The notes below the pieces were generated by a model. It made no database searches and was not told the origin of the DNA. It saw nothing but the letters and a program-made list of their open reading frames with translations. The translations under genes were made by a program, and so were the position numbers. From a phage, in the sequence record PZ564402.1: a DNA stretch of 59,352 bases; one strand, 5' to 3'. This document shows, one piece after another, positions 2,580-50,207 of the stretch; within the stretch, counting starts at the first letter, position 1; each line of letters opens with the position of its first letter.

Positions 2580-2823
2580 GGCGCAACGCTTAACGGCTGC
2601 ACGTATGGCGGCGGATCGGTATGCCGGGATCGCACGGGCAAAAGGTTTTAAACGTCATGCGGATGGCGTGACTTTTATCCGGGCAGATGCGGATCTAACG
2701 TGGGATGACCGGGCGCGCGCTTTCCGTGTGACGCTGTACAAAATGGACGGGGCCGCACGTCTTGCCGTTGCCACTGTACGCGCGAATGCGATGCTTAACG
2801 TGCTGTTAAAATCGTTTATCTGA
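2572..2823 (+). CDS. hypothetical protein (start at internal ATG MDKAQRL)
   Basis: 8-nt overlap with upstream gene; last gene before terminator. Confidence 0.45.
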   Translation: MDKAQRLTAARMAADRYAGIARAKGFKRHADGVTFIRADADLTWDDRARAFRVTLYKMDGAARLAVATVRANAMLNVLLKSFI

Positions 2824-2892
2824 ATCCCGGATTTTCGGGGAACGCCGCACGATCCCTTTTAACCTGTTTTGACATATTCCCCATGTATCAAA

Positions 2893-2919
2893 GGCCGCCT
2901 ATCCGGGCGGCTTTTTTAT
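2893..2919 (+). terminator. rho-independent terminator (GCCGCC stem / GGCGGC, T6 tract)
   Basis: GC stem-loop followed by TTTTTTATT directly after last gene of rightward early operon. Confidence 0.65.
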
Positions 2920-2927
2920 TGCCTTTC

Positions 2928-3126
2928 TGATATACGCGGCGTGCGTTGCGGTGCCGTGTAGCGGGCCTATGGTGTGCCGTGTGCGATGATATACGCGGCG
3001 TGCGTATGGCGGCCCGTCCTGCTTTCTTCCTTCCTGATATACACGACGTGCATCAATGCGGCCTTATGTGTGCGCTATGCCGTATGGCGGCCCGCTATGG
3101 TGCTGCATGATATACGCGGCGTGCGT
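2928..3126. repeat. four direct repeats of 19-bp TGATATACGCGGCGTGCGT (one degenerate) with nested TATGGCGGCCCG sub-repeats
   Basis: Copies at 2928, 2987, 3035 (degenerate), 3108; noncoding; about 240 bp from candidate cos. Confidence 0.7.
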
Positions 3127-3363
3127 TGGTGTGCGGCTGTATATGGCTATCTATTCCCCTTTCTATGGTATCCCCTGCTATATGGTGTGACGGGGCGTTA
3201 TTGTATGCCCTTATTTCGACCGCTACGGGGGGCAGACGGGGCGATCGTGGTGTAAGGTATGCCTACCTATTACGATCTATCTTGCGTGGCGTGGCGGGCG
3301 GCTGAGGAAGAATTACGGTCACGATTTCAAAAAGGTACTTACCCGCCCGTCGGTCAGCCCGGG

Positions 3364-3375
3364 GGTGCGCAGAGC
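3364..3375 (+). other. candidate cohesive-end site (cos) 12-mer GGTGCGCAGAGC
   Basis: Exact match to the 12-nt 5' cohesive end I recall being reported for Salmonella phage Chi; lies in a noncoding interval beside direct repeats. Confidence 0.45.
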
Positions 3376-3605
3376 CGCTTTCTCGGAAAATGGGCCGGAT
3401 CTGCCATAGCCCCGCTTTGCGAAATCAATAACTTAGCCGAAAAATCGAATTTCTCCCGTAGGGAGGCACCGAAACAGGGTGCTGCCCGGGGTGCGGGCGG
3501 AACGGCGCTTTAGCCCCTCAACCGATTGATAGTATTACGGTTATACCCGGTGGGCTGGTGCTGACCAAGTCCACGGCAGCAGGCATCAGACACAAGATAC
3601 AACTC

Positions 3606-3868
3606 GGTTACAGGAAATTCGACTTGTAACCTATCCGTAAATCCTTAATTCTACTACCTTTTATCAACTATTAGTTACAAGTTACAAGAAATAAGGGTAA
3701 ATAGGATAAGAAATAGGGATAAAACGTTGTATATTGTAGATCACATCGTCACACATTATATGTATGTATAGGGTTAGCGGCACTTGTAACCTGTACTCAA
3801 AACATGGTCAAGGCCAGTCGTGACGCGGCTTTCAGGGGTTACAAGACGATCATGCGTTTTTGTAACCT
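3606..3868. promoter_or_regulatory. AT-rich control region with multiple GGTTACAA/TTGTAACC inverted and tandem repeats (operator-like)
   Basis: Inverted pairs 3606-3631 and 3838-3868, tandem GTTACAAGTTACAAG at 3673-3690, further copy at 3784-3791; upstream of HTH gene 3925. Confidence 0.5.
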
Positions 3869-3924
3869 CAACGGTTAACAGCACGTCGAACATACGCGAC
3901 GTGTATCAAACGGGGAAACTAAAA

Positions 3925-4251
3925 ATGGCTAGTGCAGTTGAAAAGTTAAAATGCGGAACGTCAGTGGAACGGGCGTTGAACAAAAGAGCGGCTGATAAAG
4001 TGTGCGACGGGGTTAAAAAGCGTCTCAGAAATGCAATAGTCGCGGAAATCGACGACAAGGGGTACACCAATTCCGAAGTTTGCAGCATGACTTGCGTACC
4101 AAGCAGCCGGGTAAGGGAGTTGAAGGAAAAACAAGGAGACGGATTCCAGCTAGAAACGCTTTTACGCATGGCAATTACGCTTAAATTGGACATTGAAATG
4201 GTCACATTCTGGAATCACGACGTGATCAAAGCGCGCGTAAAAATATCGTGA
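3925..4251 (+). CDS. XRE/Cro-like helix-turn-helix transcriptional regulator (109 aa)
   Basis: HTH-like segment GYTNSEVCSMTCVPSSRVRELKEKQ; GGGGAA RBS; start placed at internal ATG because upstream part of ORF overlaps operator repeats. Confidence 0.55.
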   Translation: MASAVEKLKCGTSVERALNKRAADKVCDGVKKRLRNAIVAEIDDKGYTNSEVCSMTCVPSSRVRELKEKQGDGFQLETLLRMAITLKLDIEMVTFWNHDVIKARVKIS

Positions 4252-4298: not shown

Positions 4299-6881
4299 TT
4301 AAACTTCGTCATCCCACTCGCCCGGTACAACTTTACCGACGATTTTTTCCACCTCCGCGTTATGCTTTTTCAATGTTTTCTGCGCCCATTCGGAGTTAAG
4401 TTTTCCAGACTCGTCGTACGCACCTTTGACACGCTTTCTGACGTACACGCGACCGGACTTCCCGCCGAATTTCAGTACGCCGCCCGGCTTAAATCCGATC
4501 TCCATAAGCATGTTTTTGAGGCGAGACGTTTTCGGCATTTCCACATCTTCGGTTTCAAGGAAGGCGTCTCGCAACGATGGTACGAAGATGATGTCGCGGT
4601 GGACGCCCGGCGTTGTCCCGTCACGCAGCATTGATACTACCGCACCTTCTACCCCATCGTTTGACGCGTCGGCCATGATGGAAAACGCTTCGGTGTCCTG
4701 CGGTGCATGGCCTTTGTGGTCAAAGTCCTCGCTGATCTCCCATTCGAGGAACCATTTCTTCAATGCAGGGACGTGGTTGTCGATCGCCCGGTACACGTTC
4801 TTGAAGAAGCGCGAGCGTTCCGCCTTCGACCCGTATACCCGCTCCATGTCCAGATGATTTTCGGCCTGCGTGGACACTACCAGATAACGACGCTGGTTTT
4901 CATCGAGTGGCAACGCGTTAAAGTGGTTAGTGAACATCATTTTACTACTGGTGTTCACGACAACCTTTGGCTTGCGGCCTTTCGGTTCCACCTGAAAACG
5001 GTCATTGGTGATATACTCTTTCTGCCGCTCGATGGCGCTGTAGCGGTCGCCCTTGTCGTACACCTCTTCCACGATTTTCAGGATGTCGCCTTCCGCCCAA
5101 TCACTGAAACGGCCGTTCATCACGGAGTTTGAAACGTAGCCCACGTTTTTGCGTCCTAACATGGCTGACATGAGCACGCCTAACGTCGATTTACCGGAAC
5201 CGTGCGCGCCGCGAATCAGTAACGAGTAGTTGATGCGCTTCGTCGGGTGCTGGATAATCCACGCCATCCAGTCCATAACGTATCGGCGTTCCTTGTCATT
5301 CGGGAAAAGCACGACAAAGAAGTCCTTGATGATCTCCACGGCCTTTTTATCGTACGGCGAAAGCTCGTCGGCAGGCTCCGGAATGGAATCCGGGTCGAAA
5401 GAGTTGAGCCACGTCTTCCCGGACTCGTCTATAAAGAATTCCGGGCCATTTACCCCCGGCTTCGGCTTCCACAAGGTTTCTTCCATATCACCGTGCATCG
5501 CCGGGTAGTACATGGCGTCACAAACGATAGGGATCGGCCTGACCAGCGATGCAAAAGTGATAGGTTTAATCGTTTCTTCCTCGAATTTGCACATATTTGC
5601 GTACGCGAAGTCGAAAGCGCCCTTAGAAATGTAAGAACCGGACGATTTATCGATCAAACAGTCATTTTCTTCCGAAAAAACGAATTTTTTCAGCCAAATC
5701 GGCATTTCTTTTGAGCCATAATCGAAGCCTAATTGCTCCTTTTTATCGTTCGCAGTCATCCGGTAGTTCTTGATCCGCAGGTACGCTTCGGCCGCAACTT
5801 GGACGATCGTCTTACGGGTCATGCCGAAAATCTGCTCTTTGCGGAAGGATTCGGCCCATGCGTTCCAGTCTTTCTCGTCAGTACACTCGGCAAACGCCTC
5901 GCGGTACTCGATGGCCTTCTCTTCCTGCTCGGCTTTCTCGATTTCACGAACTTCGGTGATGATCGAGCCTAAAGTTACGAGGCGGGATGCGTTGTGCGCG
6001 AAGCCCTTATCCCACTTGTATTCGAAATCACCATCGTCGAAGTTGTGCGCCTGCATGGCCCACTCGCGGGCAATGGATTTCGCTTCGTCCTGATCCCGGC
6101 AGGAGATTTGCAGCGCGGCCAGCACCTTGATGTAGTTCTCGTAATCCTCCGGATTCGGGTACTTCATGACAAGATCGCGAAGGTCTTCGTACGTGCCGTC
6201 CCATTTCCGGATACCCGCCGTTGCCGCCCAATCCTCTTCGTCCGCCGTTCCGATGGCTTCGTACCCGTTCATCGGGCGCTTGACCATCGTCCAGCCCTGC
6301 TCTTTGGCGTAACGGTCAAACTCCGCCGCGATTTCACGCGCGGTATCGAGGCTGATCTCTTCGAGGTCGAAATCGGCTGCGTTGTTCAGCGGATTCTCGT
6401 CGTCGAGCCAGTAATAATCGCGGTTGGTGTCCGGGTGGATACCGTACGCGACGAACTGCTGGCCGTCGGCGAGGATTTCAACCGCATGGCGCTGGCCGAA
6501 GTCGTCTTCCCATACGCCGGACTTCACTTTCGAGAATGGCGATTCCGTCCGGAACAGAAAGAGTTTCTTTGGTGCCCGTCCGATACGACATGGCGCGCGG
6601 CCAACATTCTCCAGCACCCAATCCGCCATATGCGCCACGGCGTCTTCATCGTAAACGTCGATGTCAACCGCCGGGGTGTATTTGGTCAGAATCCCGATGC
6701 CGTTTTTCGTGTAGCGTTCCGCCCAACGCTGGATCTGCTCCTTATCGTTAATTGTTCTTTCCCAATCCTTACCGATGGGGCGTTTACCCGCGCCCTTCTT
6801 ATCGGCGTCCGGGGCGTAGATAGGTACAACGGTGTACCCATTCCCCCAAAGCGTTTCGCCGTACTCTTGCCAGTAATTCAT
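4299..6881 (-). CDS. bifunctional primase-polymerase / SF3 (D5-like) helicase, 860 aa
   Basis: N-terminal prim-pol motifs (VDIDVYDED, YGIHPD), Walker A GAHGSGKST in C-terminal half; acidic C-terminus WDDEV. Confidence 0.8.
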   Translation of the reverse strand: MNYWQEYGETLWGNGYTVVPIYAPDADKKGAGKRPIGKDWERTINDKEQIQRWAERYTKNGIGILTKYTPAVDIDVYDEDAVAHMADWVLENVGRAPCRIGRAPKKLFLFRTESPFSKVKSGVWEDDFGQRHAVEILADGQQFVAYGIHPDTNRDYYWLDDENPLNNAADFDLEEISLDTAREIAAEFDRYAKEQGWTMVKRPMNGYEAIGTADEEDWAATAGIRKWDGTYEDLRDLVMKYPNPEDYENYIKVLAALQISCRDQDEAKSIAREWAMQAHNFDDGDFEYKWDKGFAHNASRLVTLGSIITEVREIEKAEQEEKAIEYREAFAECTDEKDWNAWAESFRKEQIFGMTRKTIVQVAAEAYLRIKNYRMTANDKKEQLGFDYGSKEMPIWLKKFVFSEENDCLIDKSSGSYISKGAFDFAYANMCKFEEETIKPITFASLVRPIPIVCDAMYYPAMHGDMEETLWKPKPGVNGPEFFIDESGKTWLNSFDPDSIPEPADELSPYDKKAVEIIKDFFVVLFPNDKERRYVMDWMAWIIQHPTKRINYSLLIRGAHGSGKSTLGVLMSAMLGRKNVGYVSNSVMNGRFSDWAEGDILKIVEEVYDKGDRYSAIERQKEYITNDRFQVEPKGRKPKVVVNTSSKMMFTNHFNALPLDENQRRYLVVSTQAENHLDMERVYGSKAERSRFFKNVYRAIDNHVPALKKWFLEWEISEDFDHKGHAPQDTEAFSIMADASNDGVEGAVVSMLRDGTTPGVHRDIIFVPSLRDAFLETEDVEMPKTSRLKNMLMEIGFKPGGVLKFGGKSGRVYVRKRVKGAYDESGKLNSEWAQKTLKKHNAEVEKIVGKVVPGEWDDEV

Positions 6882-7237
6882 TCAAGGATTTCCCCTGTTT
6901 CGCTGTCAGTTTTGATCCAAGAAGGGTTAGTCAGCCAGTGGGGGCGGATTCCGGTAAGCGGTACCGCGCTGCAAACTTTTTCGGCCACTGCGCTCGATAC
7001 GTTATTTTGAGTCGCCCATAAAAGGGTCGAGTAGCTTACTTTCGCGGCCTTCGCTAAGTCCGCCATTCTGGCATTCGGATCGATCTCTAATGCCGCTTGT
7101 GTCATTAGAAATTTGACCTTCATCCGGTCGTCGTTTAAAGCCCATTTCGGAAATCGCATAGCCCAAGCCCTCGCATGTGTGCGTGTTATAGATTTGCGGA
7201 TAGTATATCCGGCCCGTAAATCTGTCAAGCTGGCCAT
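6878..7237 (-). CDS. putative HTH DNA-binding protein (119 aa)
   Basis: ATGA-coupled upstream of primase; HTH-like LAKAAKVSYSTLLWATQNN. Confidence 0.45.
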   Translation of the reverse strand: MASLTDLRAGYTIRKSITRTHARAWAMRFPKWALNDDRMKVKFLMTQAALEIDPNARMADLAKAAKVSYSTLLWATQNNVSSAVAEKVCSAVPLTGIRPHWLTNPSWIKTDSETGEILE

Positions 7238-7398: not shown

Positions 7399-7818
7399 AT
7401 GTCTGGTATCTTCGAACAACTGCTGGCTGAACAACAAAAAACTAACACCCTGCTGGAAGGCGTTCTGGCAGCATTGAAAGGCGGCGCGGTGAATACCTCC
7501 GCTGACGCTGGTAGCGAAACCACCGAAAAAACCACCACCACCACCAAAGGCGGTGCTAAGGGCGGCGCGAAAGGCGGTGCAGGTAAAACCGAAACTAAAG
7601 CGGCCAAGCCTAAGCACACCAAAGACGAAGTAGTCGCTGCTGTCGTCGCGGTTAAAGACGCGTTCGGCGCGCCGGAAGCCAAGAAAATCACCGCTCACTT
7701 CGGCCTCGCGAGAGTCGCGGAAGCGAAGGAAGAACACTTCGACGAAATCGTTGAAATGTGTGAAGCCAAACTGGCTGAAAAAGATGAAGGCGGTAACGGC
7801 GAAGAAGACGACGTTTAA
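7399..7818 (+). CDS. low-complexity Lys/Gly/Thr-rich protein with acidic C-terminus (139 aa)
   Basis: GGAG RBS; KGGAKGGAKGGAGK repeats; ends EEDDV; followed by hairpin terminator. Confidence 0.6.
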   Translation: MSGIFEQLLAEQQKTNTLLEGVLAALKGGAVNTSADAGSETTEKTTTTTKGGAKGGAKGGAGKTETKAAKPKHTKDEVVAAVVAVKDAFGAPEAKKITAHFGLARVAEAKEEHFDEIVEMCEAKLAEKDEGGNGEEDDV

Positions 7819-7880: not shown

Positions 7881-8210
7881 GTGACCAGCATTACTTTCAC
7901 CAACGTTTCTACTACAGGCGGCGCAGTTCTCGCGCGCACTTGGGCGGAGTTTCGTTTTCAAATCGGTGATCGCGATGTGCTGTTCAGAGTTACTTCCCCT
8001 GTTTCGAAACACGAAGCGCCGCTGCTCGTAACCCACGCATCATCCGGTCTTCGAGTATGCGACGTCTGGTGGGACGACGTGGCGAAGACTCGCTTTAACG
8101 CAGGCCGCAATAATTACAGCGGGGCAGGCGCTAGGGCATTAGTAGCGACGATTGAGCGAGTCGGCCAACACCGATTCCTCAACGCGATAAAGGCGTATCC
8201 GAATGAGTAG
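7881..8210 (+). CDS. hypothetical protein (GTG start, 109 aa)
   Basis: GGAGAGGA RBS 5 nt upstream of GTG. Confidence 0.5.
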   Translation: MTSITFTNVSTTGGAVLARTWAEFRFQIGDRDVLFRVTSPVSKHEAPLLVTHASSGLRVCDVWWDDVAKTRFNAGRNNYSGAGARALVATIERVGQHRFLNAIKAYPNE

Positions 8211-9543
8211 TAAGTCACTGTTAGTCCGCATCATGCGGGAATTCGGCGGTGGCGGCCACTCAATCTTCGCGCCTTCTGCGTCAGCGCGGTGGATAGCATG
8301 TTCCGGGAGCCTGATAGCCGGGCTTTTCGAGCATGACGAAACCATCTACGAGGCGGCGGAAGGCACGGTGGCCCACGGAATCGCCGAACAATGGCTGCGA
8401 ACGGATGTCCGGCCAACCCATTTAATCGGCACTGTCGAGACGATCACGGAAGGCGATGTCAGTCATGACATCCCGATCACGCGGTCAATGCTCGACGCAG
8501 TTCAGGAATACGTGGACTGGTGCCGATTTGAAGAGGGTGAAATGTTCACGGAAATTCGGGTATGGTTCACAGACCTGATGCCGCGAGCAAACCCGGATGA
8601 ACCTGACGAAGAACCGGAAGAGTTTGTCGCTCAGGGCGGAACGGCGGATAACATCATCATCCGTGACCGCACCTTGATCGTGACCGACCTGAAATACGGT
8701 ACTGGTGTTCAGGTTTTCGCGGAAGGGAACCCGCAGGCGCTACTTTACGCGTACGGTGCGTACCGCGCTTTTGCGGATGAATACGAGTTTGACCGTATCA
8801 TCATCCGGATTGCGCAGCCGCGACTCGACCACTTCGATACGTGGGAAATCACGCTTGACGAGTTGTTGGAGTTTGCGGAGTACGCCCGGGAGCGGATTGC
8901 AGCGGCATGGAGCCTTACCGCGCCGCGCCGCGCATCCCTGAAAGGGTGTCGCTTTTGCCGGGCAGCACATAACTGCGCAGCGATAGCGTACATGATGGAA
9001 TGTGCAGTGGGTGGGGATGTGGAATTCCTTGAAGCCGAATTCGGGGAGGAAGAAATGTCAGTATTGCGTGATGCGCTGGCGCAGGAGTATAAATTCCGGC
9101 GTGCGCAGTTCGGAAACCTGACAACCGAGCAGATGGCTAAGATCCTGCCATACCGCAAGGTGGTCGAAAACTGGTTCTCGCGCCTTGACTTCGAACTGGA
9201 ACGCCGCGCAATGAACGGTGAGAAGGTACCGGGTCAAAAGCTGGTTGAGTCGCGGACAAACCGCAAATTCGCCAACGAGAAAGATGCGATCGCGTTGTTC
9301 AAGTTCCTCGACATCGAAGAGGACAAGTACATCGAGCGCAAACTGCGTACTCCGGCGCAGATGGAAGAAGTGCTTAGGGATGAATTGGGCGTGTCCCGGG
9401 CTGGCGCGCCAAACATTATCGCGGGGATCGTTTACAAGCCGGAAGGCAAACCGACACTGGCACCGCTGACCGATAAGCGGCCACCACTGGACGGCAAGTA
9501 TTCCGGGGCGTGGGACGATGAAGATGATGACGACGAAGTGTAA
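8203..9543 (+). CDS. PD-(D/E)XK (RecB/Cas4-like) nuclease, 446 aa
   Basis: Motifs LIVTDLKYG (D/ExK) and QALLYAYG (QxxxY), Cys cluster CRFCRAAHNC; acidic C-terminus WDDEDDDDEV. Confidence 0.65.
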   Translation: MSSKSLLVRIMREFGGGGHSIFAPSASARWIACSGSLIAGLFEHDETIYEAAEGTVAHGIAEQWLRTDVRPTHLIGTVETITEGDVSHDIPITRSMLDAVQEYVDWCRFEEGEMFTEIRVWFTDLMPRANPDEPDEEPEEFVAQGGTADNIIIRDRTLIVTDLKYGTGVQVFAEGNPQALLYAYGAYRAFADEYEFDRIIIRIAQPRLDHFDTWEITLDELLEFAEYARERIAAAWSLTAPRRASLKGCRFCRAAHNCAAIAYMMECAVGGDVEFLEAEFGEEEMSVLRDALAQEYKFRRAQFGNLTTEQMAKILPYRKVVENWFSRLDFELERRAMNGEKVPGQKLVESRTNRKFANEKDAIALFKFLDIEEDKYIERKLRTPAQMEEVLRDELGVSRAGAPNIIAGIVYKPEGKPTLAPLTDKRPPLDGKYSGAWDDEDDDDEV

Positions 9544-9597: not shown

Positions 9598-10194
9598 ATG
9601 GCCGAGAAATTAGTCCCTGCGAAGAAAGTCAAGAATGGCGTGCTGTATAAATCTGGTCACATCAAGATTTCTAACGTACGTGCTTCTTACCCGCACCTCG
9701 ATAAGCCGTACGGCGGCGAAGACGGCGGCGAGCCGAAATACTCGCTGACACTTTTGATGCCGAAAGAAAGCCACGGCGAGATCGAGAAAATCATCCGCGA
9801 GCAGATCGAAGTCACCAAGAAGAACCACAAGACAGGCGCGCTTAAAGTGGCTCCGTCCATGTTGTTCATCAAAGACGGCGACACCGATTTCCCGGACAAA
9901 CCGGAATGCGAAGGGATGTGGGTTATCTCAGCGCGCGAAAGCAAACGCCCGGATGTGTATAACATCGAGCGCGAAGAGTTGACTACTTCTTCCGAAATTC
10001 TGGAAGAGATCTACGGTGGTTGTTGGGTGTCTGTCGTCATCCGTCCGTGGTCGCAGGAAAACAAATTCGGCAAACGCGTCAACGCCAACCTGATTTCCGT
10101 TCTCAAACGCAAAGACGACGAGCCGTTCGGTGAAGGTCGCGTTGACACGTCTGATGCGTGGGATGAAGACGAAGATTGGGAAGACGAAGTGTAA
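9598..10194 (+). CDS. ssDNA-binding protein, T7 gp2.5-like (198 aa)
   Basis: N-terminal ASYPHLDKPYGG...YSLTLLMP resembles gp2.5 YAYIAKPDYG...YKVDLTIP; acidic C-terminal tail DAWDEDEDWEDEV. Confidence 0.6.
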   Translation: MAEKLVPAKKVKNGVLYKSGHIKISNVRASYPHLDKPYGGEDGGEPKYSLTLLMPKESHGEIEKIIREQIEVTKKNHKTGALKVAPSMLFIKDGDTDFPDKPECEGMWVISARESKRPDVYNIEREELTTSSEILEEIYGGCWVSVVIRPWSQENKFGKRVNANLISVLKRKDDEPFGEGRVDTSDAWDEDEDWEDEV

Positions 10195-12589: not shown

Positions 12590-14111
12590 AGCGCTCGCGT
12601 ATTGCCTGCGGACGGTTAAACTGAACCGCAGCGACATGCACGACTATCAGGACGAAGGCGTCCAGTTCATCAAAGACCATCCGTACTGCGGCATGTTCGT
12701 AGACCTCGGCTTGGGTAAGACTGTCATGACCGGGACGGCCATGCTAGACCTGATCGCGGACGGCGAAATCAACAAAGTCCTCGTCGTCGCGCCGAAGCGA
12801 GTGGCCCGTACCGGGTGGCCGACGGAATTCGACGAGTGGGGCCATCTGTGCTTCTACAAGATGTCGATTATCGCCGGAAACGCCAAAGAGCGCGCAGCGG
12901 CCGCGAGTAAGGACTGCCATTTTTACACGATCAGCGTCGATAACATCGCGTGGCTGTGCGAGCACTTCAAGACGAAATGGCCGTTCGACGCCGTGGTGCT
13001 GGACGAGTCGAGCATGTTCAAATCCCACACCTCGCAGCGCTTCAAACTGCTGCGCCGGGTGCGGAAGTACATCAAACGGATCGTCGAGTTGACGGCCACG
13101 CCTGCGGCCGAAGGGTACATGGGTATCTTCTCGCAAATTTACCTGCTGGACGAAGGCGAGCGCTTTGGCTCCACCATCGGCGGTTATCAGGACAACTACT
13201 TCACGCAGAACCGCTACAACTTCAAATGGAAACTTCGCCCCGGTGCGGAAGACGAGATTATTCGGAAGATTTCTGATATATGTTTAGTCATGAAAGCGGA
13301 AGACTACCTTGACATGCACGAACCGAATTTCGTTCCTGTCCCGGTCGAGTTAGACGGGGAGACGGCCGAGCGGTACCGCATGATGGAGGAAGAGAGCCTC
13401 GTCGAGATTATGCCGGACGATTTCGATGAACATCTGGATGACCCAATCGTGATCGAAGCGGAGCAGGCCGCGTCTTTGCAGTCGAAGCTATTGCAGATGT
13501 GCTCAGGCTTCATCTACGACACGAAAATCGTTGGCATAACGCAAGACGACAAGGTCATTAAGCAGAAGGACACGTACAGGCTGCACGACCTGAAATTCGA
13601 TGCACTGGAAGAACTGCTGGAAACCACGCTGGCCGATAAAAACGTGCTGATCGCCTATCACTTCAAGCCGACCCTCGAACGACTGAAAGAGCGGTTTAAA
13701 GATCTGGTGGTCATGGATGATGACGGTAAGTGCATCAAGAAGTGGAACGCCGGAAAGATTCGACTGCTGGCCGCGCACCCTCAGTCAGCGGGACACGGTT
13801 TAAACCTCCAGCATGGCGGCCACGTCATCGTCTACATCGACAATCCGTGGTCACTCGAACGCTTCCTGCAATTCAATGGCCGATTGCACCGTCAGGGGCA
13901 GAAGTACCCGGTTACGATCTACCAGTTCAAAGCCATGCTGCGAACACCGAACGGGCTTCTGGCCGAGACGGCGGACGACGTAGTCATACAGGCGCTGGTC
14001 GAAAAGGAAGACGTGCAGGACGCGTTCTTCGAACTGCTCGAACGTATCAAAGGGCGCATCAAACGCCGCAAGAAATCGAAAAATAAAGGGGTATGGGATG
14101 ACGAAGAGTAA
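12552..14111 (+). CDS. SNF2/SF2 family helicase (start uncertain: TTG 12552 or ATG 12636)
   Basis: Q-motif HDYQDEGV, Walker A GLGKT, DExx-like VVLDES, helicase C motifs; C-terminus VWDDEE. Confidence 0.75.
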   Translation: MQTLKTTLSPLSRALAYCLRTVKLNRSDMHDYQDEGVQFIKDHPYCGMFVDLGLGKTVMTGTAMLDLIADGEINKVLVVAPKRVARTGWPTEFDEWGHLCFYKMSIIAGNAKERAAAASKDCHFYTISVDNIAWLCEHFKTKWPFDAVVLDESSMFKSHTSQRFKLLRRVRKYIKRIVELTATPAAEGYMGIFSQIYLLDEGERFGSTIGGYQDNYFTQNRYNFKWKLRPGAEDEIIRKISDICLVMKAEDYLDMHEPNFVPVPVELDGETAERYRMMEEESLVEIMPDDFDEHLDDPIVIEAEQAASLQSKLLQMCSGFIYDTKIVGITQDDKVIKQKDTYRLHDLKFDALEELLETTLADKNVLIAYHFKPTLERLKERFKDLVVMDDDGKCIKKWNAGKIRLLAAHPQSAGHGLNLQHGGHVIVYIDNPWSLERFLQFNGRLHRQGQKYPVTIYQFKAMLRTPNGLLAETADDVVIQALVEKEDVQDAFFELLERIKGRIKRRKKSKNKGVWDDEE

Positions 14112-14667
14112 TGCGCCACTGGCAACCCGGAATCGCCGCTCTAACGCGCCGGACGCCGACACAGAAGCGATGATCTTTCAGGGCTGCAACATCACGCAAC
14201 TGGCAAAACTGTTCCGCATGGAGCGCCGGGACATCACGCCGAAAATCATGGATGTCCCGCCTATCGGCGAGCGTGGCGGGTACCCGATCTACGCGGTTCA
14301 CGAAGTGGCCCCGTACCTCGTTAAGCCGCTGTACGATGTCGAGACGTACCTGCGCCGCATGAATTTCAAGGATCTGCCGAAGGAGTTGTCGAAAGAGTTT
14401 TGGGCCGGGCAGCGTGCAAAGCAGGACTTCGACATCAAAGCTGGCAACCTGTGGGAAACAGAGAAGGTGATCGAGCACTTCGGCGAGGCGGTGAAGGTAC
14501 TGCGCATGTCGATGCTGCTCATTCCCGACACGCTGGCGCGTCAGGCCGGACTCAGCGAGCCGCAACGTCAGGTCATCACGTCATCCATTGACGCCATGCT
14601 GAACGACCTGTCGAGCGCGCTGATCGAGAAGTTCAACGGCGACGAGGTGGACGACGATGAAGTTTAA
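14098..14667 (+). CDS. terminase small subunit, Nu1-like winged-HTH (189 aa)
   Basis: NITQLAKLFRMERRDITPKIMDVPPIGERGGYPIYAVHEV resembles lambda Nu1 N-terminal DNA-binding domain; directly upstream of and overlapping TerL; C-terminus DDDEV. Confidence 0.55.
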   Translation: MTKSNAPLATRNRRSNAPDADTEAMIFQGCNITQLAKLFRMERRDITPKIMDVPPIGERGGYPIYAVHEVAPYLVKPLYDVETYLRRMNFKDLPKELSKEFWAGQRAKQDFDIKAGNLWETEKVIEHFGEAVKVLRMSMLLIPDTLARQAGLSEPQRQVITSSIDAMLNDLSSALIEKFNGDEVDDDEV

Positions 14668-16732
14668 CAGCATCGCGCAGATTATCAGTTCGGTGGCCGA
14701 GCAGTTACGGCCGCCAATGCGTATGACGGTGGCCGATGCGGCCGCCAAGTATCGCTACGTCAACCAACCCGGCGCATACGTCGGGGATTGGCTTAACTCG
14801 ACGACGCCGTACATGGTCGAGCCGATGAACATGATGAACAGCCGGGCATACGACAAGATGGCCTTTGTCGGCCCTGCGCAGTCCGGTAAAACCGATGCGC
14901 TGATCCTGAATAGCATTGTCTATTCAGTGAAAGTTGACCCGATGGATCTGATGGTCTACTGCCCGACGTCAACGGCCGCGCGCGACTTCTCGATGCGACG
15001 TGTAGACCGTCTTCACCGCCATAGCCCGAAGGTGGGCGAAATGCTGATGAAGAACCGCGACGCCGACAACAAATTCGACAAACACTACGTCACAGGCATC
15101 ATCCTGACGTTGAGTTATCCGTCAGTAACCGAACTGGCCGGGCGTCCCGTTGGCCGCATCATCATCACCGACTACGACCGTATTGACGACGACATCGGTG
15201 GCGACGGTAACGCCTTCGACCTCGCATCAAAACGTACGACGACCTTCGGGTCGTTTGCCATGTGTGCAGCCGAGTCATCACCATCGCGCCCGATTAAAGA
15301 CCCAAGCTGGATTAAGCGCACGCCCCACGAAGCCCCGCCGTGTGACGGGATTGTCGGCCTGTACAACCGAGGCGACCGCCGCCGCTGGAAATGGCCGTGT
15401 CCGCATTGCGACCAGTATTTCGAAGGTACCTTCCAGCTTTTGAAGTGGAACACGAAAGACGCCGATGGCAACCCTCTAACCAACCTCGAAAAGTCGGAGA
15501 CAGTGCGCATGGCCTGTCCACACTGCGGCTGCGAAATAGACCCGGTTGATAAGTATGAAATGAACCTGTGGGGGATGTGGGTGCCGGAAGGCTGTCATGT
15601 CAACGAGTTGGGCCAACTGGCCGGGGTACCGATGCGCTCGTCGTTCGCGTCCTTCTGGCTCCGCGGAACGGCGGCCGCATTCATCACATGGCAGAAACTG
15701 GTTCTGAACTACCTCGATGCGATGGATGACTACGAGCGTACGATGTCCGAAGAGTCCTTGAAGAAATTCTGGAACAACGACATGGGCGAACCGTACGTGC
15801 CGAAGGCGATCGAGACGGTACGCGTTCCGGAAGCGCTGAAAGCCCGCGCCGAGAAGTGGCCGGAACAGACGGTGCCGAAGAATGTGCGGTTCTTGGCGGC
15901 CACGGTGGACGTGCAGAAGCATAGCTTTGAAGTGTCGGTGCATGGCGTGGCCCCCGGCTACCCATTCGACACCTACCTGATCGACCGCTTCAACATCACG
16001 AAATCGCGCCGACTCGATGACGATGGCGACCCGAAAATCCTGCACCCGGGCGCGTACCTCGAAGATTGGGATCTCATTGAAACCGAAGTGATGAACAAGA
16101 CGTATCCGCTGTACGATAATTCTGGCCGTTCGCTGCCGATCAAGATGACCGCGTGCGACTCCGGTGGTGAAGCCGGGGTAACGGGCAACGCGTACGAATT
16201 CTTCCGGAAACTGCGGAAGGAAGGGAAAACCGGGCGCTTCTGTCTGGTGAAGGGCGACCCGAAAGCGAACAACCCGCGCACCCGCGTAGCGCTACCGGAC
16301 TCCAACCAGAAAGACAAGAAAGCCATCGCACGCGGCGACGTTCCGGTGCTGATGATTAACTCGAACGTGATGAAAGATAGCCTGAACGGCCGACTGGACG
16401 TCGTGGAGCCGGGCAAAGGCATGTACCACATCCCGAACTGGATGGGCGACGCGGTATTCGCCGAACTGTGTACGGAGACGCGTGACGAGAAAGGCTGGCA
16501 CAACCCATCCCACGCCCGAAACGAAACGTGGGACTTGGCGTATTATTTATTAGGTATTTGCGTCAGTGGCCGCGTGCTCGGGATTGAGCAGATAGATTGG
16601 GATAACCCGCCATCATGGGCGGCCGAGTGGGACGATAACAGCATGGTTATTTTACCGCAGAGCGATGAACCTATTGATGCACCGAAAGATACCGAATACA
16701 GTTTCGAGAAACTCGCAATGGCGTTAGCATAG
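14657..16732 (+). CDS. terminase large subunit (lambda gpA-like)
   Basis: Walker A GPAQSGKT, size 691 aa, position upstream of gpW-like and portal. Confidence 0.9.
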   Translation: MKFNSIAQIISSVAEQLRPPMRMTVADAAAKYRYVNQPGAYVGDWLNSTTPYMVEPMNMMNSRAYDKMAFVGPAQSGKTDALILNSIVYSVKVDPMDLMVYCPTSTAARDFSMRRVDRLHRHSPKVGEMLMKNRDADNKFDKHYVTGIILTLSYPSVTELAGRPVGRIIITDYDRIDDDIGGDGNAFDLASKRTTTFGSFAMCAAESSPSRPIKDPSWIKRTPHEAPPCDGIVGLYNRGDRRRWKWPCPHCDQYFEGTFQLLKWNTKDADGNPLTNLEKSETVRMACPHCGCEIDPVDKYEMNLWGMWVPEGCHVNELGQLAGVPMRSSFASFWLRGTAAAFITWQKLVLNYLDAMDDYERTMSEESLKKFWNNDMGEPYVPKAIETVRVPEALKARAEKWPEQTVPKNVRFLAATVDVQKHSFEVSVHGVAPGYPFDTYLIDRFNITKSRRLDDDGDPKILHPGAYLEDWDLIETEVMNKTYPLYDNSGRSLPIKMTACDSGGEAGVTGNAYEFFRKLRKEGKTGRFCLVKGDPKANNPRTRVALPDSNQKDKKAIARGDVPVLMINSNVMKDSLNGRLDVVEPGKGMYHIPNWMGDAVFAELCTETRDEKGWHNPSHARNETWDLAYYLLGICVSGRVLGIEQIDWDNPPSWAAEWDDNSMVILPQSDEPIDAPKDTEYSFEKLAMALA

Positions 16733-16742
16733 GAGAACCACC

Positions 16743-16997
16743 ATGACACCAGAAGAATGCCGCGCGCAATATCGCCTCATGCTCAAAGAAGCGATGGATG
16801 CGTACCACCAATTAAACCTCGGCGGCTCGGTGCGCGTCGTGGTGGATCAGAACAGTGAACGCGTGGAATATACCGCAGCGAACCGACAAAGCCTATGGGC
16901 CTACATCGTTCGACTGCAAAACGCGATTAATTCGGACAACCCTTGCGCGGCCTTCATGGGCCTACCAAGTTCACCAGCAGGATTCTTATTCCCATGA
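16743..16997 (+). CDS. gpW-like head-tail joining protein
   Basis: Small ORF between TerL and portal; VVDQNSERVEYTAANRQSLWAYIVRLQ resembles lambda gpW core. Confidence 0.45.
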   Translation: MTPEECRAQYRLMLKEAMDAYHQLNLGGSVRVVVDQNSERVEYTAANRQSLWAYIVRLQNAINSDNPCAAFMGLPSSPAGFLFP

Positions 16998-18673
16998 CCG
17001 AGAAAAAGAGAAGCACTACACAACGGGCGAAGAAAGCGGCAAAGACCGCCGACGTCGCTACGTTGGACGCCACGCCGCAGAATCCTTCGGCACTCGGTGG
17101 CGGCTTAGAGGGGGCTGAACGGAACACGCGTGAAATGTTCCGCTGGACGCCTGCCATCATTTCACCAGACCAGCAAATCGCCCAAGACGGTACGCTGGCG
17201 CTTTCGCGTGCGCAGGACATCGTACAGAACGACGGCTACGCATTTGGCGCGGTGGCGATTCACCGTGACAGCGTCGTCGGCTCGCAGTACAAACTCAACT
17301 CGAAACCCAATTCGCTGGTGCTCGGCGCGCCGGAAGGTTGGGCGGATGAATTTCAGGAAGTAGTCGAGGCGCGCTTCAACATGGTGGCCGAGTCTCCTGA
17401 AAACTGGTTCGATGCCCGCCGGATGAACACGCTGACCGGGCTTGTCCGTCTGGCCGTTGGCGGCTTCATCATGACCGGGGAAGTTCTGGCGTCATGCGAG
17501 TGGATGAAGCCGAAGGGAACCCGTATGCAGCGCCGTCCGTTCGGCACTGCGATCCAGATGATTTCGCCGTACCGTCTGTCCAACCCGGACAACATCATGG
17601 ACGACAAGTATCTGCGCTCCGGCGTCAAACTGGATGAAATGGGCGCTCCGATCGGCTACTGGCTGCGTAAAGCGTTCCCGGGCGACCCGACTGACCTCGA
17701 ACAATGGCGATGGGAATACCAGCCCGCTCGCTTCGATTGGGGCCGACGTCGGATGATCCACATCATCGAAGCGCTGCTGCCGGGCCAGACTCGCGGTATC
17801 AGTGAAATGGTCGCAGCGTTGAAGCAGATGAAGATGACCCGAAACTTTCAGGAAGTCACGCTGCAAAACGCCATCGTCAACGCGACCTACGCGGCCGCCA
17901 TCGAATCAGAATTGCCGTCTGACGTGGTCTTCAATCAGATGGGGATGGGACAGACGCCTTTCGGCGACATCCTGAAAACCTACATGGGGAGTCTGGCCGA
18001 GTACATCGCCGGATCGAAAAACATCGCAATCGACGGGGCGAAAATCCCGCACCTGTTCCCCGGTACGAAACTGAAAATGCAGCCCGCAGGAACGCCGGGC
18101 GGAGTCGGAACCGATTATGAAGAATCGTTGCTCAGGAACATCGCCGCATCACTCGGCCTTTCGTACGAGCAGTTCAGCCGCGACTATACGAAAACGAACT
18201 ACTCTTCTGCCCGCGCTTCGATGGCTGAAACGTGGAAGTACATGGAAAGCCGTAAAAAGCTGGTAGCCGACCGTTTCGCGTCGATGATTTATACGTTGTG
18301 GTTGGAAGAAGAGGTTAACGCTGGTAATGTTCCACTGCCGCCGGGCTTCACTTGGCGCGACTTCTACGACCCGATGAAACGTGACGCGCTTTGCAACGCA
18401 GAATGGATCGGCGCGAGTCGCGGTCAGATCGACGAGAAGAAAGAAACCGAAGCCGCTATCCTTCGCATCAAGAATGGCCTGTCAACGTACGAAGCAGAAA
18501 TCGCCCGCCTCGGTGGGGACTTCCGCGAAGTATTCAAACAGCGCGCCCGCGAAGAAGGCATCATCAAAGATTTGGGCCTTGATTTCTCCGGCAAGATGGT
18601 CGAAGGGACGGAGGCAAGCGGTTCAACTGGCAGCACTGGCTCGGACAACAACGAAGAGGATACGAAGGAATGA
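16994..18673 (+). CDS. portal protein (lambda gpB-like)
   Basis: About 560 aa, located between TerL and prohead protease; start at ATG 16994 overlapping gpW-like stop. Confidence 0.8.
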   Translation: MTEKKRSTTQRAKKAAKTADVATLDATPQNPSALGGGLEGAERNTREMFRWTPAIISPDQQIAQDGTLALSRAQDIVQNDGYAFGAVAIHRDSVVGSQYKLNSKPNSLVLGAPEGWADEFQEVVEARFNMVAESPENWFDARRMNTLTGLVRLAVGGFIMTGEVLASCEWMKPKGTRMQRRPFGTAIQMISPYRLSNPDNIMDDKYLRSGVKLDEMGAPIGYWLRKAFPGDPTDLEQWRWEYQPARFDWGRRRMIHIIEALLPGQTRGISEMVAALKQMKMTRNFQEVTLQNAIVNATYAAAIESELPSDVVFNQMGMGQTPFGDILKTYMGSLAEYIAGSKNIAIDGAKIPHLFPGTKLKMQPAGTPGGVGTDYEESLLRNIAASLGLSYEQFSRDYTKTNYSSARASMAETWKYMESRKKLVADRFASMIYTLWLEEEVNAGNVPLPPGFTWRDFYDPMKRDALCNAEWIGASRGQIDEKKETEAAILRIKNGLSTYEAEIARLGGDFREVFKQRAREEGIIKDLGLDFSGKMVEGTEASGSTGSTGSDNNEEDTKE

Positions 18674-21497: not shown

Positions 21498-21558
21498 TAA
21501 CCCGTAAATCAAACCATACGATCCGCCTTACCGGGCGGGTCGCTTTGAGGAAAGAGCC

Positions 21559-21852
21559 ATGCCAAAACGTAAAGTTCTCCAGACCGTCATCGTTTACCGC
21601 GACGGCGCGCGTATCAAGCCTTCCATCGGCGAGATCTTCGATTTCAAACAGGCCGAACTGGACAGCATCAACAAAATCAACCCGGACGCCATTGGCCGCC
21701 CGGTGATGGAAGTTGACGTGGAAAATCAGGCAGCGCAGGAAGCCGCAGCGCAGCAGGCGAAAGCTGAAACGTCCAAAAAAGACGAGAAGGCCGACGGTGC
21801 TAAGAAAAACGCCAAAGACGATAAAAAGTCTGGCGCGGAAGACGAAGTCTAA
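21559..21852 (+). CDS. hypothetical head-associated protein, Lys/Ala-rich with acidic C-terminus
   Basis: ORF between capsid and adaptor genes; ends AEDEV. Confidence 0.5.
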   Translation: MPKRKVLQTVIVYRDGARIKPSIGEIFDFKQAELDSINKINPDAIGRPVMEVDVENQAAQEAAAQQAKAETSKKDEKADGAKKNAKDDKKSGAEDEV

Positions 21853-45582: not shown

Positions 45583-45863
45583 ATTAAGCCTCGGTTATAT
45601 TCGTCCACGTATTTTTCATTTTCAGGAGATCGGTCTACCTGATTAATCTCGCTGAACTCGCAGGAAATAATATCCCCGCTAGGCAGGCGCACCCGCCAAA
45701 AAATATCCTCTTCACGCGGCCCGGTGCGTTCCCATTCGAGCACGGTTCCGTAGTATTTATGCCCGTTGAATCGGTCAGTGAAATGCACGGAGTCGCCTTT
45801 AATCGGCCAGCCCGGTTTTATCTTGGCACGGTATTTCCGTTTTATAGCCTCAACGTCGATCAT
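45579..45863 (-). CDS. hypothetical early protein (94 aa)
   Basis: ORF coupled to neighbours on minus strand. Confidence 0.45.
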   Translation of the reverse strand: MIDVEAIKRKYRAKIKPGWPIKGDSVHFTDRFNGHKYYGTVLEWERTGPREEDIFWRVRLPSGDIISCEFSEINQVDRSPENEKYVDEYNRGLI

Positions 45864-45938
45864 ACTTCATCATCCTCCAAGTCTTCGTCAAAAAGGTCGG
45901 ACTGGCCGCCGGAAAAGCTGACGACAAGCGGCGCTTTG

Positions 45939-46652
45939 TTAGTTGGCATCGGTTGAGTCCTCGCATAATGGTATGAAGTCCTTCGGGCCGTCGCCTGAAC
46001 CGGGGAAGCGCCGGAAGACCATTTCGTCTTCGATGGTCAGTTTATCCTTGCTGTTCCCGCGACGATAGAAGTCGGCCATGCCGCTGCCGTACGTGCGGTC
46101 AATCCCGGCACCATACGGATCTTGCGGGCAAAGTTCCAGCGCCAGCACTTCTCGCCAGTCCGGCCGATCGATACGGCAGACCGTACGATAGTTGTTCGAC
46201 ACCCGGCAGTATCCCGAGGCAATCAGCGTTTCCACCAACCGGGCCTGTTCCTTGCCACGCATCGTTTTCGCGCGCTTGACGTCCTCTTTCCTTGCCCGGG
46301 CGAAATACTCCCGCGAGAATCGGCTACCGACGTTCTCCGCGAAGATGCGCAGGTCTTTGATGACCATGCCCCATTTCCGGCGGCTACCCTCGTCCACGTA
46401 GCGGATGGCTCCGGCGTAGCGAAGCAGCATGGCGTCGGTCAGGCGGGCATTCTTCGGGTCTTTGGCTTTCCACCAGCCGTACACTTCCACCATGCGGGCC
46501 ATCGCCTTGTCGCTATACCACAACTCGGCGTGGCTGGTGGGCGAGTATTCCGGGTAAGACTTTGCGCCGCCGTCAAACGCCCGGTAGCAGTACCAGATCC
46601 CGCCGCTGTACTGGAAGTGCGGTATCTTGTGAAGTTCTTTCATCGTAGCCAT
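45939..46652 (-). CDS. hypothetical early protein (start at internal ATG MATMKEL)
   Basis: GAGGA RBS before ATG 46652; ATGA-type overlap with upstream gene. Confidence 0.5.
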   Translation of the reverse strand: MATMKELHKIPHFQYSGGIWYCYRAFDGGAKSYPEYSPTSHAELWYSDKAMARMVEVYGWWKAKDPKNARLTDAMLLRYAGAIRYVDEGSRRKWGMVIKDLRIFAENVGSRFSREYFARARKEDVKRAKTMRGKEQARLVETLIASGYCRVSNNYRTVCRIDRPDWREVLALELCPQDPYGAGIDRTYGSGMADFYRRGNSKDKLTIEDEMVFRRFPGSGDGPKDFIPLCEDSTDAN

Positions 46653-47692: not shown

Positions 47693-47735
47693 GTTGCCCC
47701 CTAAAGTAAAAATCCCCGTTGTTGCCTTCGGGGAT

Positions 47736-47765
47736 AATATAGGTTATACACGCGACGTATGTCAA
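47736..47765 (-). promoter_or_regulatory. early promoter, conserved family (-35 TTGACA, spacer with TACGTCGCGTGTA, -10 TATATT)
   Basis: One of four near-identical minus-strand modules (47.7, 50.2, 53.5, 56.8 kb), each intergenic. Confidence 0.6.
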
Positions 47766-50168: not shown

Positions 50169-50207
50169 AATAAAAAACTCCCGTTGGTGGATTAACCTTC
50201 GGGAGTA

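Follow-up and report, generated by a model that had tools for sequence, protein, structure and literature searches.

The locus at 2928-3375 raises the question of where the virion chromosome of this phage begins and ends, and whether the direct repeats lying near those ends are the sites at which its terminase is positioned. The window (the whole stretch of phage DNA analysed, 59,352 nucleotides, record PZ564402.1) had been credited in a preliminary description with a cosN plus cosB-type arrangement, composed of a 12-mer matching the cohesive end of phage Chi, four direct repeats about 240 bp from it and a Nu1-like small terminase subunit (TerS). The cosN part of that arrangement stood. The repeats as cosB were not supported as described, as copies of them occur in promoters, they lie on the wrong side of cosN and they fall outside the conserved core. 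The reading that we favour as the probable one, though with modest confidence, is that 3364-3375 is cosN, that the 19-bp repeats are operator-like and not the primary packaging-initiation site, and that the terminase signals lie in a conserved cos core.

The 12-mer GGTGCGCAGAGC was located on the plus strand at 3364-3375 and was the sole match in the window even at up to one mismatch, with about 0.007 exact matches expected by chance in 2 x 59,352 positions. Primer extension on Chi has mapped 12-base 5' extensions of GGTGCGCAGAGC (Hendrix 2015, PMC4342425), and the same 12-nt overhang was confirmed for Utah (PMC5374247) and Siskin (PMC6498227), in agreement with the Chi sequence given in the preliminary description. 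PhageTerm termini for SeF2 and SeF6b agreed with a Chi-type cos. The window showed 90-99% identity to Chi, Utah and Siskin across the cos region, and its gene order around cos (right-arm small genes, then cos, then primase) matched that of the Chi relatives. An identical 12-nt 5' overhang was shared with Chi, Utah, Siskin, iEPS5 and Enc34, and its flanks were 87-99% homologous within Chivirus.

Analysis by blastn showed that 2880-3400 was matched by 113 phage records, many of which terminate at window 3363 or 3375. The 12-mer is the record end in BSPM4 (which finishes ...GGTGCGCAGAGC), STP-2, phage 37 and YSD1; the records of iEPS5, SPN19 and BP12C start at it in reverse orientation; those of Chi, Siskin and Season12 stop immediately before it; and the Enc34 record carries the annotation 'cos overhang' at both ends. 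The annotations of Chi, Siskin and Enc34, all curated relatives, place no CDS in 2824-3924, in line with the noncoding interval reported earlier. By these comparisons the window is a circularly permuted Chivirus (Casjensviridae) genome of a Chi-like siphophage. Because the mapped termini of Chi, Utah and Siskin coincide with the record ends of relatives that are 90-99% identical, the virion ends of this phage almost certainly lie at 3364-3375, where the preliminary description had placed them, with relatives' records beginning or ending exactly at the 3363/3364 junction or at 3375. The cosN is of the already known Chi-like kind, and the phage is another member of that group. Position 3364 is base 1 on the standard Chi map, so this Chi-like genome should be opened with base 1 at window 3364, and cos packaging is almost certain.

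Left of cosN, where the virion chromosome has its right end, four plus-strand direct repeats of TGATATACGCGGCGTGCGT were found within 2928-3126. Copies 1 (2928-2946), 2 (2987-3005) and 4 (3108-3126) are identical. Copy 3 (3035-3053, TGATATACACGACGTGCAT) has three mismatches (16/19), forms a better palindrome (ATaCACG-A-CGTGcAT) and has the canonical sequence in SP-124 and PMBT19. The start-to-start spacing is 59, 48 and 73 bp, and copy 4 is separated from the 12-mer by 237 bp, which confirms the four repeats about 240 bp away, three of them exact. At up to three mismatches, 6 matches to the 19-mer occurred in the window versus 0.02 in shuffles.

The array follows directly on the intrinsic terminator of the rightmost operon (2890-2917, plus strand), a GGCCGCC/GGCGGCC hairpin then a T-run, with a predicted RNA fold of -17.4 kcal/mol (z = -3.5) and 0/26 variable columns in 8 Chivirus genomes. 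A similar hairpin with a T-run was present at the equivalent place in Enc34, Redjac, RAH2, XAP3 and JS26. A known structured RNA in 2700-4000 was discarded, as Rfam gave only sub-threshold matches, on the terminator hairpin. A coding reading of the ORFs at 2946-3513 (54-93 aa, one of them spanning cosN) was also set aside: they are unannotated in curated relatives, and the alignments show 1-nt indels.

Across the 8 Chivirus genomes, 7 of the 76 repeat columns were variable versus 48 of the 123 spacer columns (Fisher p = 3e-6), with 1/19 variable in copy 1. Judged by this alignment the 19-mers are under selection, hence putative real protein-binding sites. The array copies have no usable -35 or -10 hexamers in the flanks inspected, and these flanks are fully diverged, so that the 19-mer alone is conserved. 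At least four genera keep the array at this position, flanked by the terminator and the cos core, which argues for a chromosome-end function beyond transcription alone. The array recurs in Redjac, with four cos-proximal copies, and in Enc34, with a cos-proximal copy at 60117, and that of Klebsiella phage RAH2 consists of weak copies only. Degenerate relatives of the 19-mer core also occur inside the conserved core of the window, GACGGGGCG at 3236 and TGCGTGGCGTG at 3287, a further point against an operator-only reading.

The 19-mer was not confined to the cos interval. The minus strand carries two further exact copies, one at 834-852 and one at 57409-57427, each forming the spacer of a predicted plus-strand sigma70-like promoter. 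The one at 831-860 (TTGACG, 18 nt, TATATT) would drive the genes at 922-2823 and the one at 57406-57435 (TTGACG, 18 nt, TACATT) the genes from 57500. A PWM scan showed palindromic relatives in the spacers of four predicted leftward (minus-strand) promoters, namely ACATACGTCGCGTGTAT at 47736-47765, ACATACGCGACATGTGT at 50207-50236, GTACGTCGCGTGTAC at 53469-53498 and ACATACGTCGCGTGTAG at 56782-56810, and an independent promoter scan gave exactly these six sites, putative strong sigma70-type promoters, as TTGAC[AG] promoters, with spacers of 17-18 nt. The family consensus ACATACG-N3-CGTATGT is a dyad, of which the window 19-mer is an imperfect and the Redjac element (ACATACGC-C-GCGTATGT) a perfect form. 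Enc34 shares its element with promoters at 44718, 46046 and 53760, and Redjac with a promoter at 20582; lineage by lineage, the copies at cos and those in promoters carry one flank variant in common, namely GCGT for the window, GTGY for Enc34 and ATGT for Redjac. Dyad symmetry and overlap with the core promoter (six copies), two properties of an operator, were both found. Since the same element lies inside early promoters, the array 19-mers are probably regulator-binding sites rather than a terminase docking site.

The arrangement is like that of known spacer operators (MerR-type; lambda OL/OR) in having a 17-19-bp dyad element between the -35 and -10 of several promoters, and like lambda OL/OR in having extra copies kilobases off, which in the window phage could cooperate by looping. 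It is unlike them in that the four auxiliary copies share one orientation and lie at the chromosome end. Given promoter spacers of 17-18 nt, binding should repress and not activate in the MerR manner. Putative candidates for the regulator are TerS and the conserved 119-aa product of 6878-7237, whose homologue in Enc34 is annotated 'putative transcriptional regulator'. The HTH_37 protein (3925-4251) was rejected as a universal binder because BSPM4, Enc34 and most relatives lack its gene. A host transcription factor is unlikely, as the motif goes with the lineage of the phage in hosts ranging from Xanthomonas to Salmonella, and we know of no enterobacterial consensus that resembles the 19-mer.

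A second conserved unit, the cos core, covers about 360 bp on both sides of cosN across genera, and the 19-mer array lies outside it. The blastn matches from Redjac, PatoteraRojo, RAH2, XAP3, Rostov43 and Enc34 begin at about window 3180; on the left, distant genera retain nothing beyond about 3180-3378, and on the right their conserved blocks reach about 3540. The left half of the core (3180-3363) is the sole part left of cosN that could be aligned in other genera (alignment A1). It contains the 17-mer ATTTCAAAAAGGTACTT on the plus strand at 3324-3340, 23 nt upstream of the top-strand nick and thus in a cosQ-like position. In A1, 16 of its 17 positions were invariant in 7 genomes of distinct genera, PatoteraRojo having T for C at 3328, and in the block around it 1/23 columns varied within Chivirus. 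An IMG/VR scan for the 17-mer gave 14 loci, 5 of them Chi-like (Redjac, Enc34, Chi and two new contigs); the remaining loci were dismissed as chance matches in AT-rich DNA. A short inverted repeat, (A)CCCG ... CGGGG(G), occupies 3341-3365 with its right arm abutting the nick site, and in the window, Enc34, Redjac, RAH2, XAP3 and L025 its arms are kept around a variable spacer of 13-15 nt.

The right half of the core (3376-3540; alignment A2, 5 genera) is a candidate lambda-type cosB. It contains GAAAATGGGCCGGA, CCCGTAGG at 3456-3463, and a repeat with copies at 3407-3415 (TAGCCCCGC) and 3511-3519 (right-hand copy, TAGCCCCTC). An IHF consensus match, AATCAATAACTTA, lies between the two at 3423-3435, and a second lies at 3519-3531 on the minus strand. 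Two of the 4 IHF consensus matches in the whole window thus fall in the 170 bp that follow cosN on its right, and the consensus WATCAANNNNTTR had no match in 2824-3363, array included. Enc34, Redjac, RAH2 and Rostov43 all retain the repeat and IHF blocks. The short TAGCCCCGC alone was not statistically enriched in the window, so its weight comes only from conservation across genera and position. Taken together, 3376-3540 shows the layout of a lambda-type cosB: repeats with an IHF consensus between them, adjoining cosN on the terminase side. The sequences read by the terminase are most likely those of the cos core, and its 17-mer and TAGCCCCGC/IHF module would be better terminase candidates than the 19-mer array.

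The terminase genes are on the plus strand, with TerS at 14098-14667, 10.7 kb right of cosN, and a large subunit (TerL) of the lambda gpA type at 14657-16732, followed by a lambda-family portal at 16943-18673. Hendrix et al. (PMC4342425) likewise noted terminase genes over 10 kb away from the left end in Chi. The TerS belongs to DUF1441 and phrog_141, the latter described in PHROG as 'terminase small subunit'. DUF1441 (PF07278) was its sole Pfam match even at E <= 10; a Nu1-like TerS beside the repeats was therefore not borne out, the Pfam family being DUF1441 and not Phage_Nu1 and the gene being 10.7 kb away. When TerS was compared with the PDB by sequence and by profile, the only matches were to Z-alpha winged helices, at E of about 0.7. 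Its AF2 model (pLDDT 78, pTM 0.40) has an N-terminal H-H-H-beta-beta arrangement and then long helices. The best Foldseek matches of the model were MerR-family proteins, at non-significant values (E 0.03-1), and hhalign against lambda Nu1 aligned the N-termini with E 0.022 and a probability of only 2%. The predicted N-terminus may thus faintly resemble a MerR/Nu1-type winged helix.

In lambda, cosB occupies the interval from cosN to the terminase genes and has an IHF site between its R elements (PMC4669245). Common to lambda and the window are the 12-nt 5' overhang, a TerL of the gpA family, a portal of the lambda family and a small TerS, whose N-terminus in the window phage may be of wHTH type. 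The window also shares with lambda cosQ a short conserved element tens of bp upstream of the nick, and with lambda cosB the repeated short elements, the IHF consensus between them and the location on the terminase-gene side of cosN. The two differ in that the lambda terminase genes adjoin cos and those of the window phage are 10.7 kb away, and in that the R-like candidates of the window are direct repeats 104 bp apart whereas lambda R3/R2 form an inverted pair. At the sequence level the window resembles none of lambda cosQ, cosN and cosB. Nothing in lambda corresponds to the 19-mer array, apart from a loose parallel with R4/I2, which lie left of cosN and are dispensable in lambda.

A different array was found in the Serratia phage JS26 (Dunedinvirus, Casjensviridae), where three or four repeats of about 21 bp, all in one orientation, occupy the stretch that separates the last right-arm terminator from the conserved cos core, 40-75 bp apart start to start, in an arrangement similar to that of the window. 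Their motif GTATCAGATAGCCCGATCATC is unrelated to the 19-mer, the conserved core includes one degenerate member, and the motif was not found at promoters within the 25 kb examined. The JS26 array looks cos-specific, which counts against an operator-only reading of such arrays. The JS26 record is given in the opposite, reverse-complement orientation to the Chi map, and the genes beside its array-equivalent end are expressed by 5 min, for which its authors propose first entry into the cell (preprint, on this other genus). By the lambda rule that the first end in is the last packaged, this proposal would make the array end of the window phage the last-packaged end.

Four other explanations of the array were weighed against the operator-like reading. 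The array could be the equivalent of cosB, with TerS binding the 19-mers and positioning TerL on cosN 240 bp off, so that packaging would start on this side. This agrees with four same-orientation repeats under purifying selection near cosN, with arrays at the equivalent position in several genera, including the cos-specific-looking one of JS26, with the winged helix predicted at the TerS N-terminus, and with the TerS sites that SPP1-type phages carry on both sides of the cut (PMC4669245). We nevertheless regard it as unlikely, because the motif is exact in two promoter spacers with relatives in four more and so is not specific to cos, and because the array lies outside the cross-genus core, without an IHF consensus, on the side of cosN opposite to TerS and TerL, and at a gap of 237 bp that far exceeds the lambda cosN-to-R3 distance. 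RAH2 moreover has weak copies only, and the array end would be packaged last if the JS26 inference holds. A model with two uses for one protein, which we rate as rather improbable, would have TerS (a MerR/Nu1-like winged helix plus coiled coil) bind both the array and the early-promoter dyads. At the array it would slow or capture the incoming motor, as suggested for lambda cosQ, R4 and I2, and in the promoter spacers it would end early transcription once infection is late. The motif sits exactly where MerR proteins bind their dyads, in -35/-10 spacers, and the top Foldseek matches of the TerS model were consistently of MerR-family wHTH type (CarH, BmrR, CadR, CueR, GlnR and RacA). The array is also upstream of cosN relative to the inferred direction of translocation, and array and promoter copies co-vary by lineage. 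Those Foldseek matches are, however, non-significant (E 0.03-1, model pTM 0.40), the hhalign probability against lambda Nu1 is 2%, the spacers have 17-18 nt and not the 19-20 nt typical of MerR activation, and the array motif of JS26 differs from its promoter spacers; to our knowledge, a TerS acting as a transcription factor has no precedent. If true, a terminase subunit would be a spacer-binding transcription factor, and one protein would couple the shut-off of the early operon, which is injected first, to the recognition or termination of packaging at cos.

The two remaining explanations leave the terminase aside. As a replication origin, the array would consist of lambda-ori-like iterons of about 19 bp bound by an initiator, for example the primase-helicase (4299-6881), with repression of the early promoters as its second task. 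The presence of four partly dyad-symmetric 19-bp repeats, and of a gene for a Prim-Pol/SF3-type primase-helicase at about 1 kb once the genome is circularised, is in keeping with this, but the array has a GC of 0.58 and no adjoining AT-rich unwinding element (GC 0.53-0.60 over 2900-3300), its repeats are irregularly spaced at 48-73 bp, a long distance for iterons, and the sole AT-rich stretch (3600-3800) lies across cosN with its own TTGTAAC repeats and would be the better origin candidate, so that an origin at the array appears very unlikely. It is equally hard to believe that the copies are decayed duplicates of early promoters, now functionless and kept identical by gene conversion. Their sequence is identical to that of the promoter spacers, the first copy still has TTGACA in XAP3 and Rostov43, and in Adana all four copies carry one A-to-G change, which suggests conversion. 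Against decay, the 19-mer alone is conserved beside diverged immediate flanks, variation in the repeats is four-fold below that in the spacers, and the arrays persist across genera in which the flanking DNA cannot be aligned.

Under the favoured operator-like reading, a lambda-type terminase (gpA-like TerL with the small TerS), as homology suggests, would introduce nicks staggered by 12 nt that leave the overhang GGTGCGCAGAGC, with 3364 becoming the left and 3363 the right chromosome end. It would read the core of about 360 bp, using the cosQ-like 17-mer on the left and the cosB-like TAGCCCCGC plus IHF set on the right. A dimeric phage-encoded DNA-binding protein on the 19-mers would control early transcription, the exact 19-mer occupying both predicted promoters of the right-end early operon. 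The array just past the terminator of that operon would probably provide auxiliary operators, acting via looping or a raised local concentration.

In the papers on Chi-like phages that were searched, the overhang alone is described, and a cosB, an array, a promoter motif or flanking recognition elements were not found there. To the 12-nt overhang by which these papers describe the Chi-family cos, the comparison adds a testable map, consisting of a core of about 360 bp, a 17-mer upstream of the nick, and an IHF and repeat module on the terminase side despite the displaced terminase genes. The conspicuous repeat array is made of the element that marks the early promoters, which calls for caution in naming any repeat near cosN 'cosB'. 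The sharing between array and promoters points to a regulator, or to a second role of TerS, in a phage group used in therapy and flagellar biology.

To the right of cos, GC falls to 0.29-0.35 over about 3600-3800, within an AT-rich stretch (3590-3870) that has TTGTAAC(C) direct and inverted repeats and adjoins the primase-helicase gene. Enc34 carries four copies of TTGTAATAAA at the equivalent place. The region at 3590-3870 is a candidate origin or control region, separate from the 19-mer array.

The 12-mer GGTGCGCAGAGC was found by sequence search of the window on the plus strand at 3364-3375, with a single match even when one mismatch was permitted. The preliminary description had matched it to the cohesive end of phage Chi and had placed the virion ends there, within a noncoding interval, and all of this agreed with the published and curated evidence. 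The Chi termini are 12-base 5' extensions of GGTGCGCAGAGC by primer extension (Hendrix et al., PMC4342425), run-off sequencing confirmed the termini of Utah (PMC5374247) and Siskin (PMC6498227), and PhageTerm was in agreement for SeF2 and SeF6b. The 12-mer forms the terminal bases of the BSPM4, STP-2, phage 37 and YSD1 records, opens those of iEPS5, SPN19 and BP12C in reverse orientation, and begins one base after the point where the Chi, Siskin and Season12 records stop. Region 2800-3900 matched more than 100 phage records at 87-99% identity, nearly all Chi-like and mostly classed as Chivirus, with Salmonella and E. coli as hosts. The cos assignment is right and already known, and cosN may be regarded as settled by homology for this genome.

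The gene order around cos was identical to that of Chi. Positions 2824-3924 are non-coding in curated relatives, 2824 being the end of the last right-arm ORF; a strong intrinsic terminator (2890-2917; -17.4 kcal/mol, z = -3.5) stands at the start of this interval. A variable HTH gene comes first after 3375, followed by the primase-helicase (4299-6881, minus strand), nuclease, SSB, Pol A, SNF2 helicase, TerS (14098-14667), a gpA-type TerL (14657-16732) and a lambda-family portal. Hendrix et al. [quoted passage not shown] With up to three mismatches, the 19-mer was found 6 times, against 0.02 in shuffles. Across eight aligned Chivirus genomes, variation affected 7 of the 76 columns in the repeats and 48 of the 123 in the spacers (Fisher p = 3e-6), and the copies are best taken as real, selected, putative protein-binding sites.

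The repeats are not cos-specific. The minus strand carried two further exact 19-mers (834-852 and 57409-57427), each in an intergenic rightward sigma70-like promoter consisting of TTGACG, a spacer of 17-18 nt that the 19-mer fills almost wholly, and TATATT or TACATT, with the leader AATTCCCTTCGGGGG 3' of the -10 in both. A PWM scan placed palindromic relatives at 47.7, 50.2, 53.5 and 56.8 kb; on the minus strand, each of these falls between the -35 and -10 of a TTGAC(A/G) promoter directed leftward, and the best TTGAC[AG] matches of an independent promoter scan were exactly the motif-bearing promoter sites. The family consensus is the dyad ACATACG-N3-CGTATGT. The -35 and -10 hexamers were absent at all four array copies while the 19-mer was retained, which argues that the element itself is maintained and not a promoter. 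The best-supported reading is that the array comprises operator-like sites that it shares with the early promoters, an auxiliary set located where the right-end early operon ends.

A stable GC hairpin stood in the leader directly after each motif-bearing promoter (863-885 and 57438-57460, CCCTTCGGGGG; minus strand ~47700-47735 and ~50170-50205, ATCCCCGAAGG...CGGGGAT or ACTCCCGAAGG...CGGGAGT, then a T-run), as also in Enc34 and JS26; in appearance these hairpins are like terminators or attenuators close to the promoter, or like stems that stabilise the mRNA. The non-coding stretch 57260-57400, 5' of the 57406 promoter, was G/T-rich and carried the words GGTGTGCCG and AATGCGGCC, also present in the array spacers. 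Just before it, at 57195-57207, lay AATCAATGACTTA, one of the four IHF consensus matches in the window and identical to the version that Redjac, IMG/VR contig L025 and the consensus have at the IHF site to the right of cosN.

Outside the genus the array region was unalignable, and the same motif persisted between the terminator and the cos core. Cos-proximal copies numbered four in Redjac, three or four in PatoteraRojo, XAP3 and Rostov43, one or two in Enc34 and two in L025, while Klebsiella phage RAH2 had weak copies only. Enc34 and Redjac also carried the motif in distant promoter spacers, and the 3' flank variant matched between array and promoter in each lineage (GCGT in the window, GTGY in Enc34, ATGT in Redjac), a pattern consistent with a single binding protein or with concerted evolution. 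In Salmonella phage S.Typ Adana (OR845130.1), each of the four array copies (TGGTATACG...) had the same A-to-G change, which the homologous promoter copy (TTTATATACG...) lacked, suggesting gene conversion among array copies; the motif scan found no counterpart of the 831 promoter there. The first start-to-start interval was nearly constant (59 bp in the window, 58 in Redjac, XAP3 and Rostov43, 60 in Enc34), and later intervals varied across genera.

Serratia phage JS26 (NC_053012.1) was the exception, its cos-proximal repeats being another 21-mer that was not found at JS26 promoters in the 25 kb examined. On the array side (L036, 1-760) there were three copies of GTATCAGATAGCCCGATCATC and one degenerate copy falling within the conserved core. 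On the primase side (L037, 4510-4972), CCTACGCAAT/ATTGCGTAGG occurred in two inverted clusters, and the record appears to have been opened close to, not precisely at, a Chi-type overhang.

Left of cosN, similarity to distant genera was limited to ~3180-3378 and included ATTTCAAAAAGGTACTT (3324-3340), which lies 23 nt from the nick and is nearly invariant, with 16 of 17 positions identical in a seven-genome alignment; next to the nick is a short CCCG...CGGGG inverted repeat. To the right, five genera shared the blocks GAAAATGSGCCG, CATAGCCCCGCTT (3405-3417), AAATCAATRACTTA, CCCGTAGG and TTTAGCCCCGCAACCGnTTGAT, and two of the window's four matches to the IHF consensus WATCAANNNNTTR lay at 3423-3435 and 3519-3531. 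In lambda, cosB is on the terminase-gene side of cosN and is made up of R elements bound by TerS, R3 being separated from R2 by an IHF site; cosQ, short and conserved, is upstream of cosN (PMC4669245). Because elements on both flanks match this arrangement, the core reproduces the lambda layout either side of the nick, whereas the 19-mer array falls outside it. Packaging signals are more probably in the core than in the array. Since the TAGCCCCGC elements are short and unenriched across the window, the cosB candidate right of cosN is assigned from position and conservation. Of the cosN plus cosB-type arrangement proposed earlier, cosN stood by homology; the repeats as a lambda-type cosB were not supported, the element recurring in promoters and a better candidate lying right of cosN.

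The lambda rule is that the end injected first is the end packaged last. The JS26 record is reverse-complemented relative to the Chi map (the minus-strand TerL lies 10.4 kb short of the right end, and the primase is the final gene), and its gp01-gp13 are the counterpart of the operon ending at the array. A Tn-seq preprint (bioRxiv 10.64898/2025.12.19.695335) describes these as small genes that are non-essential, reach high expression by 5 min and are hyper-targeted by Tn5, a pattern its authors read as first-injected DNA. By this indirect analogy with another genus, the array end would be packaged last and initiation would lie across cosN from it. A packaging-related role of the array, especially on the termination side, was considered rather unlikely beside the operator-like reading.

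The description of TerS as Nu1-like was not borne out by Pfam, where the match was DUF1441 (small terminase in PHROGs) and Phage_Nu1 was absent. An AlphaFold model from a 39-sequence alignment (pLDDT 78) began with an H-H-H-beta-beta unit and had long helices towards the C-terminus; its best Foldseek matches were uniformly MerR-family winged-helix regulators, none significant (E 0.03-1), and hhalign aligned its N-terminus with that of lambda Nu1 (E 0.022, probability 2%). On these values, 'Nu1-like' is plausible by fold and unproven. As MerR proteins bind dyads in promoter spacers, TerS itself might read the 19-mer, a reading of low probability.

Over the array and left cos core (2850-3400, plus strand) T exceeded A, with an AT skew of -0.33 to -0.48 that turned positive at cosN. 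Between cos and the primase gene, 3590-3870 was AT-rich (GC 0.29-0.35) with no fewer than seven TTGTAAC(C) repeats in direct or inverted orientation, an architecture kept family-wide (GTTACAAGTTACAA; TTGTAATAAA four times in Enc34), which makes it a candidate for a replication origin or a control region. Positions 3688-4251, comprising the HTH_37 gene (3925-4251) and the DNA 5' of it, are a variable insert that few relatives match (ECO104 4-5-2, ECO111 5-P, PK4, SeF6b and sal3); the gene was absent from BSPM4 and Enc34, and a near-perfect dyad ACATACGCGACGTGTAT (3890-3906) lies just 5' of its ribosome-binding site. At least nine proteins, including the primase-helicase, DUF2800 nuclease, Enc34-type SSB, TerS and recombination exonuclease, ended in an acidic tail ...D[DE]EV (4299-6881(-), 7399-7818, 8203-9543, 9598-10194, 14098-14667, 21508-21852, 45860-46036(-), 54152-55225(-) and 56368-56739(-)), which is comparable to the acidic C-termini of T7 gp2.5/gp4 and has the look of a docking tail through which all would bind one partner.
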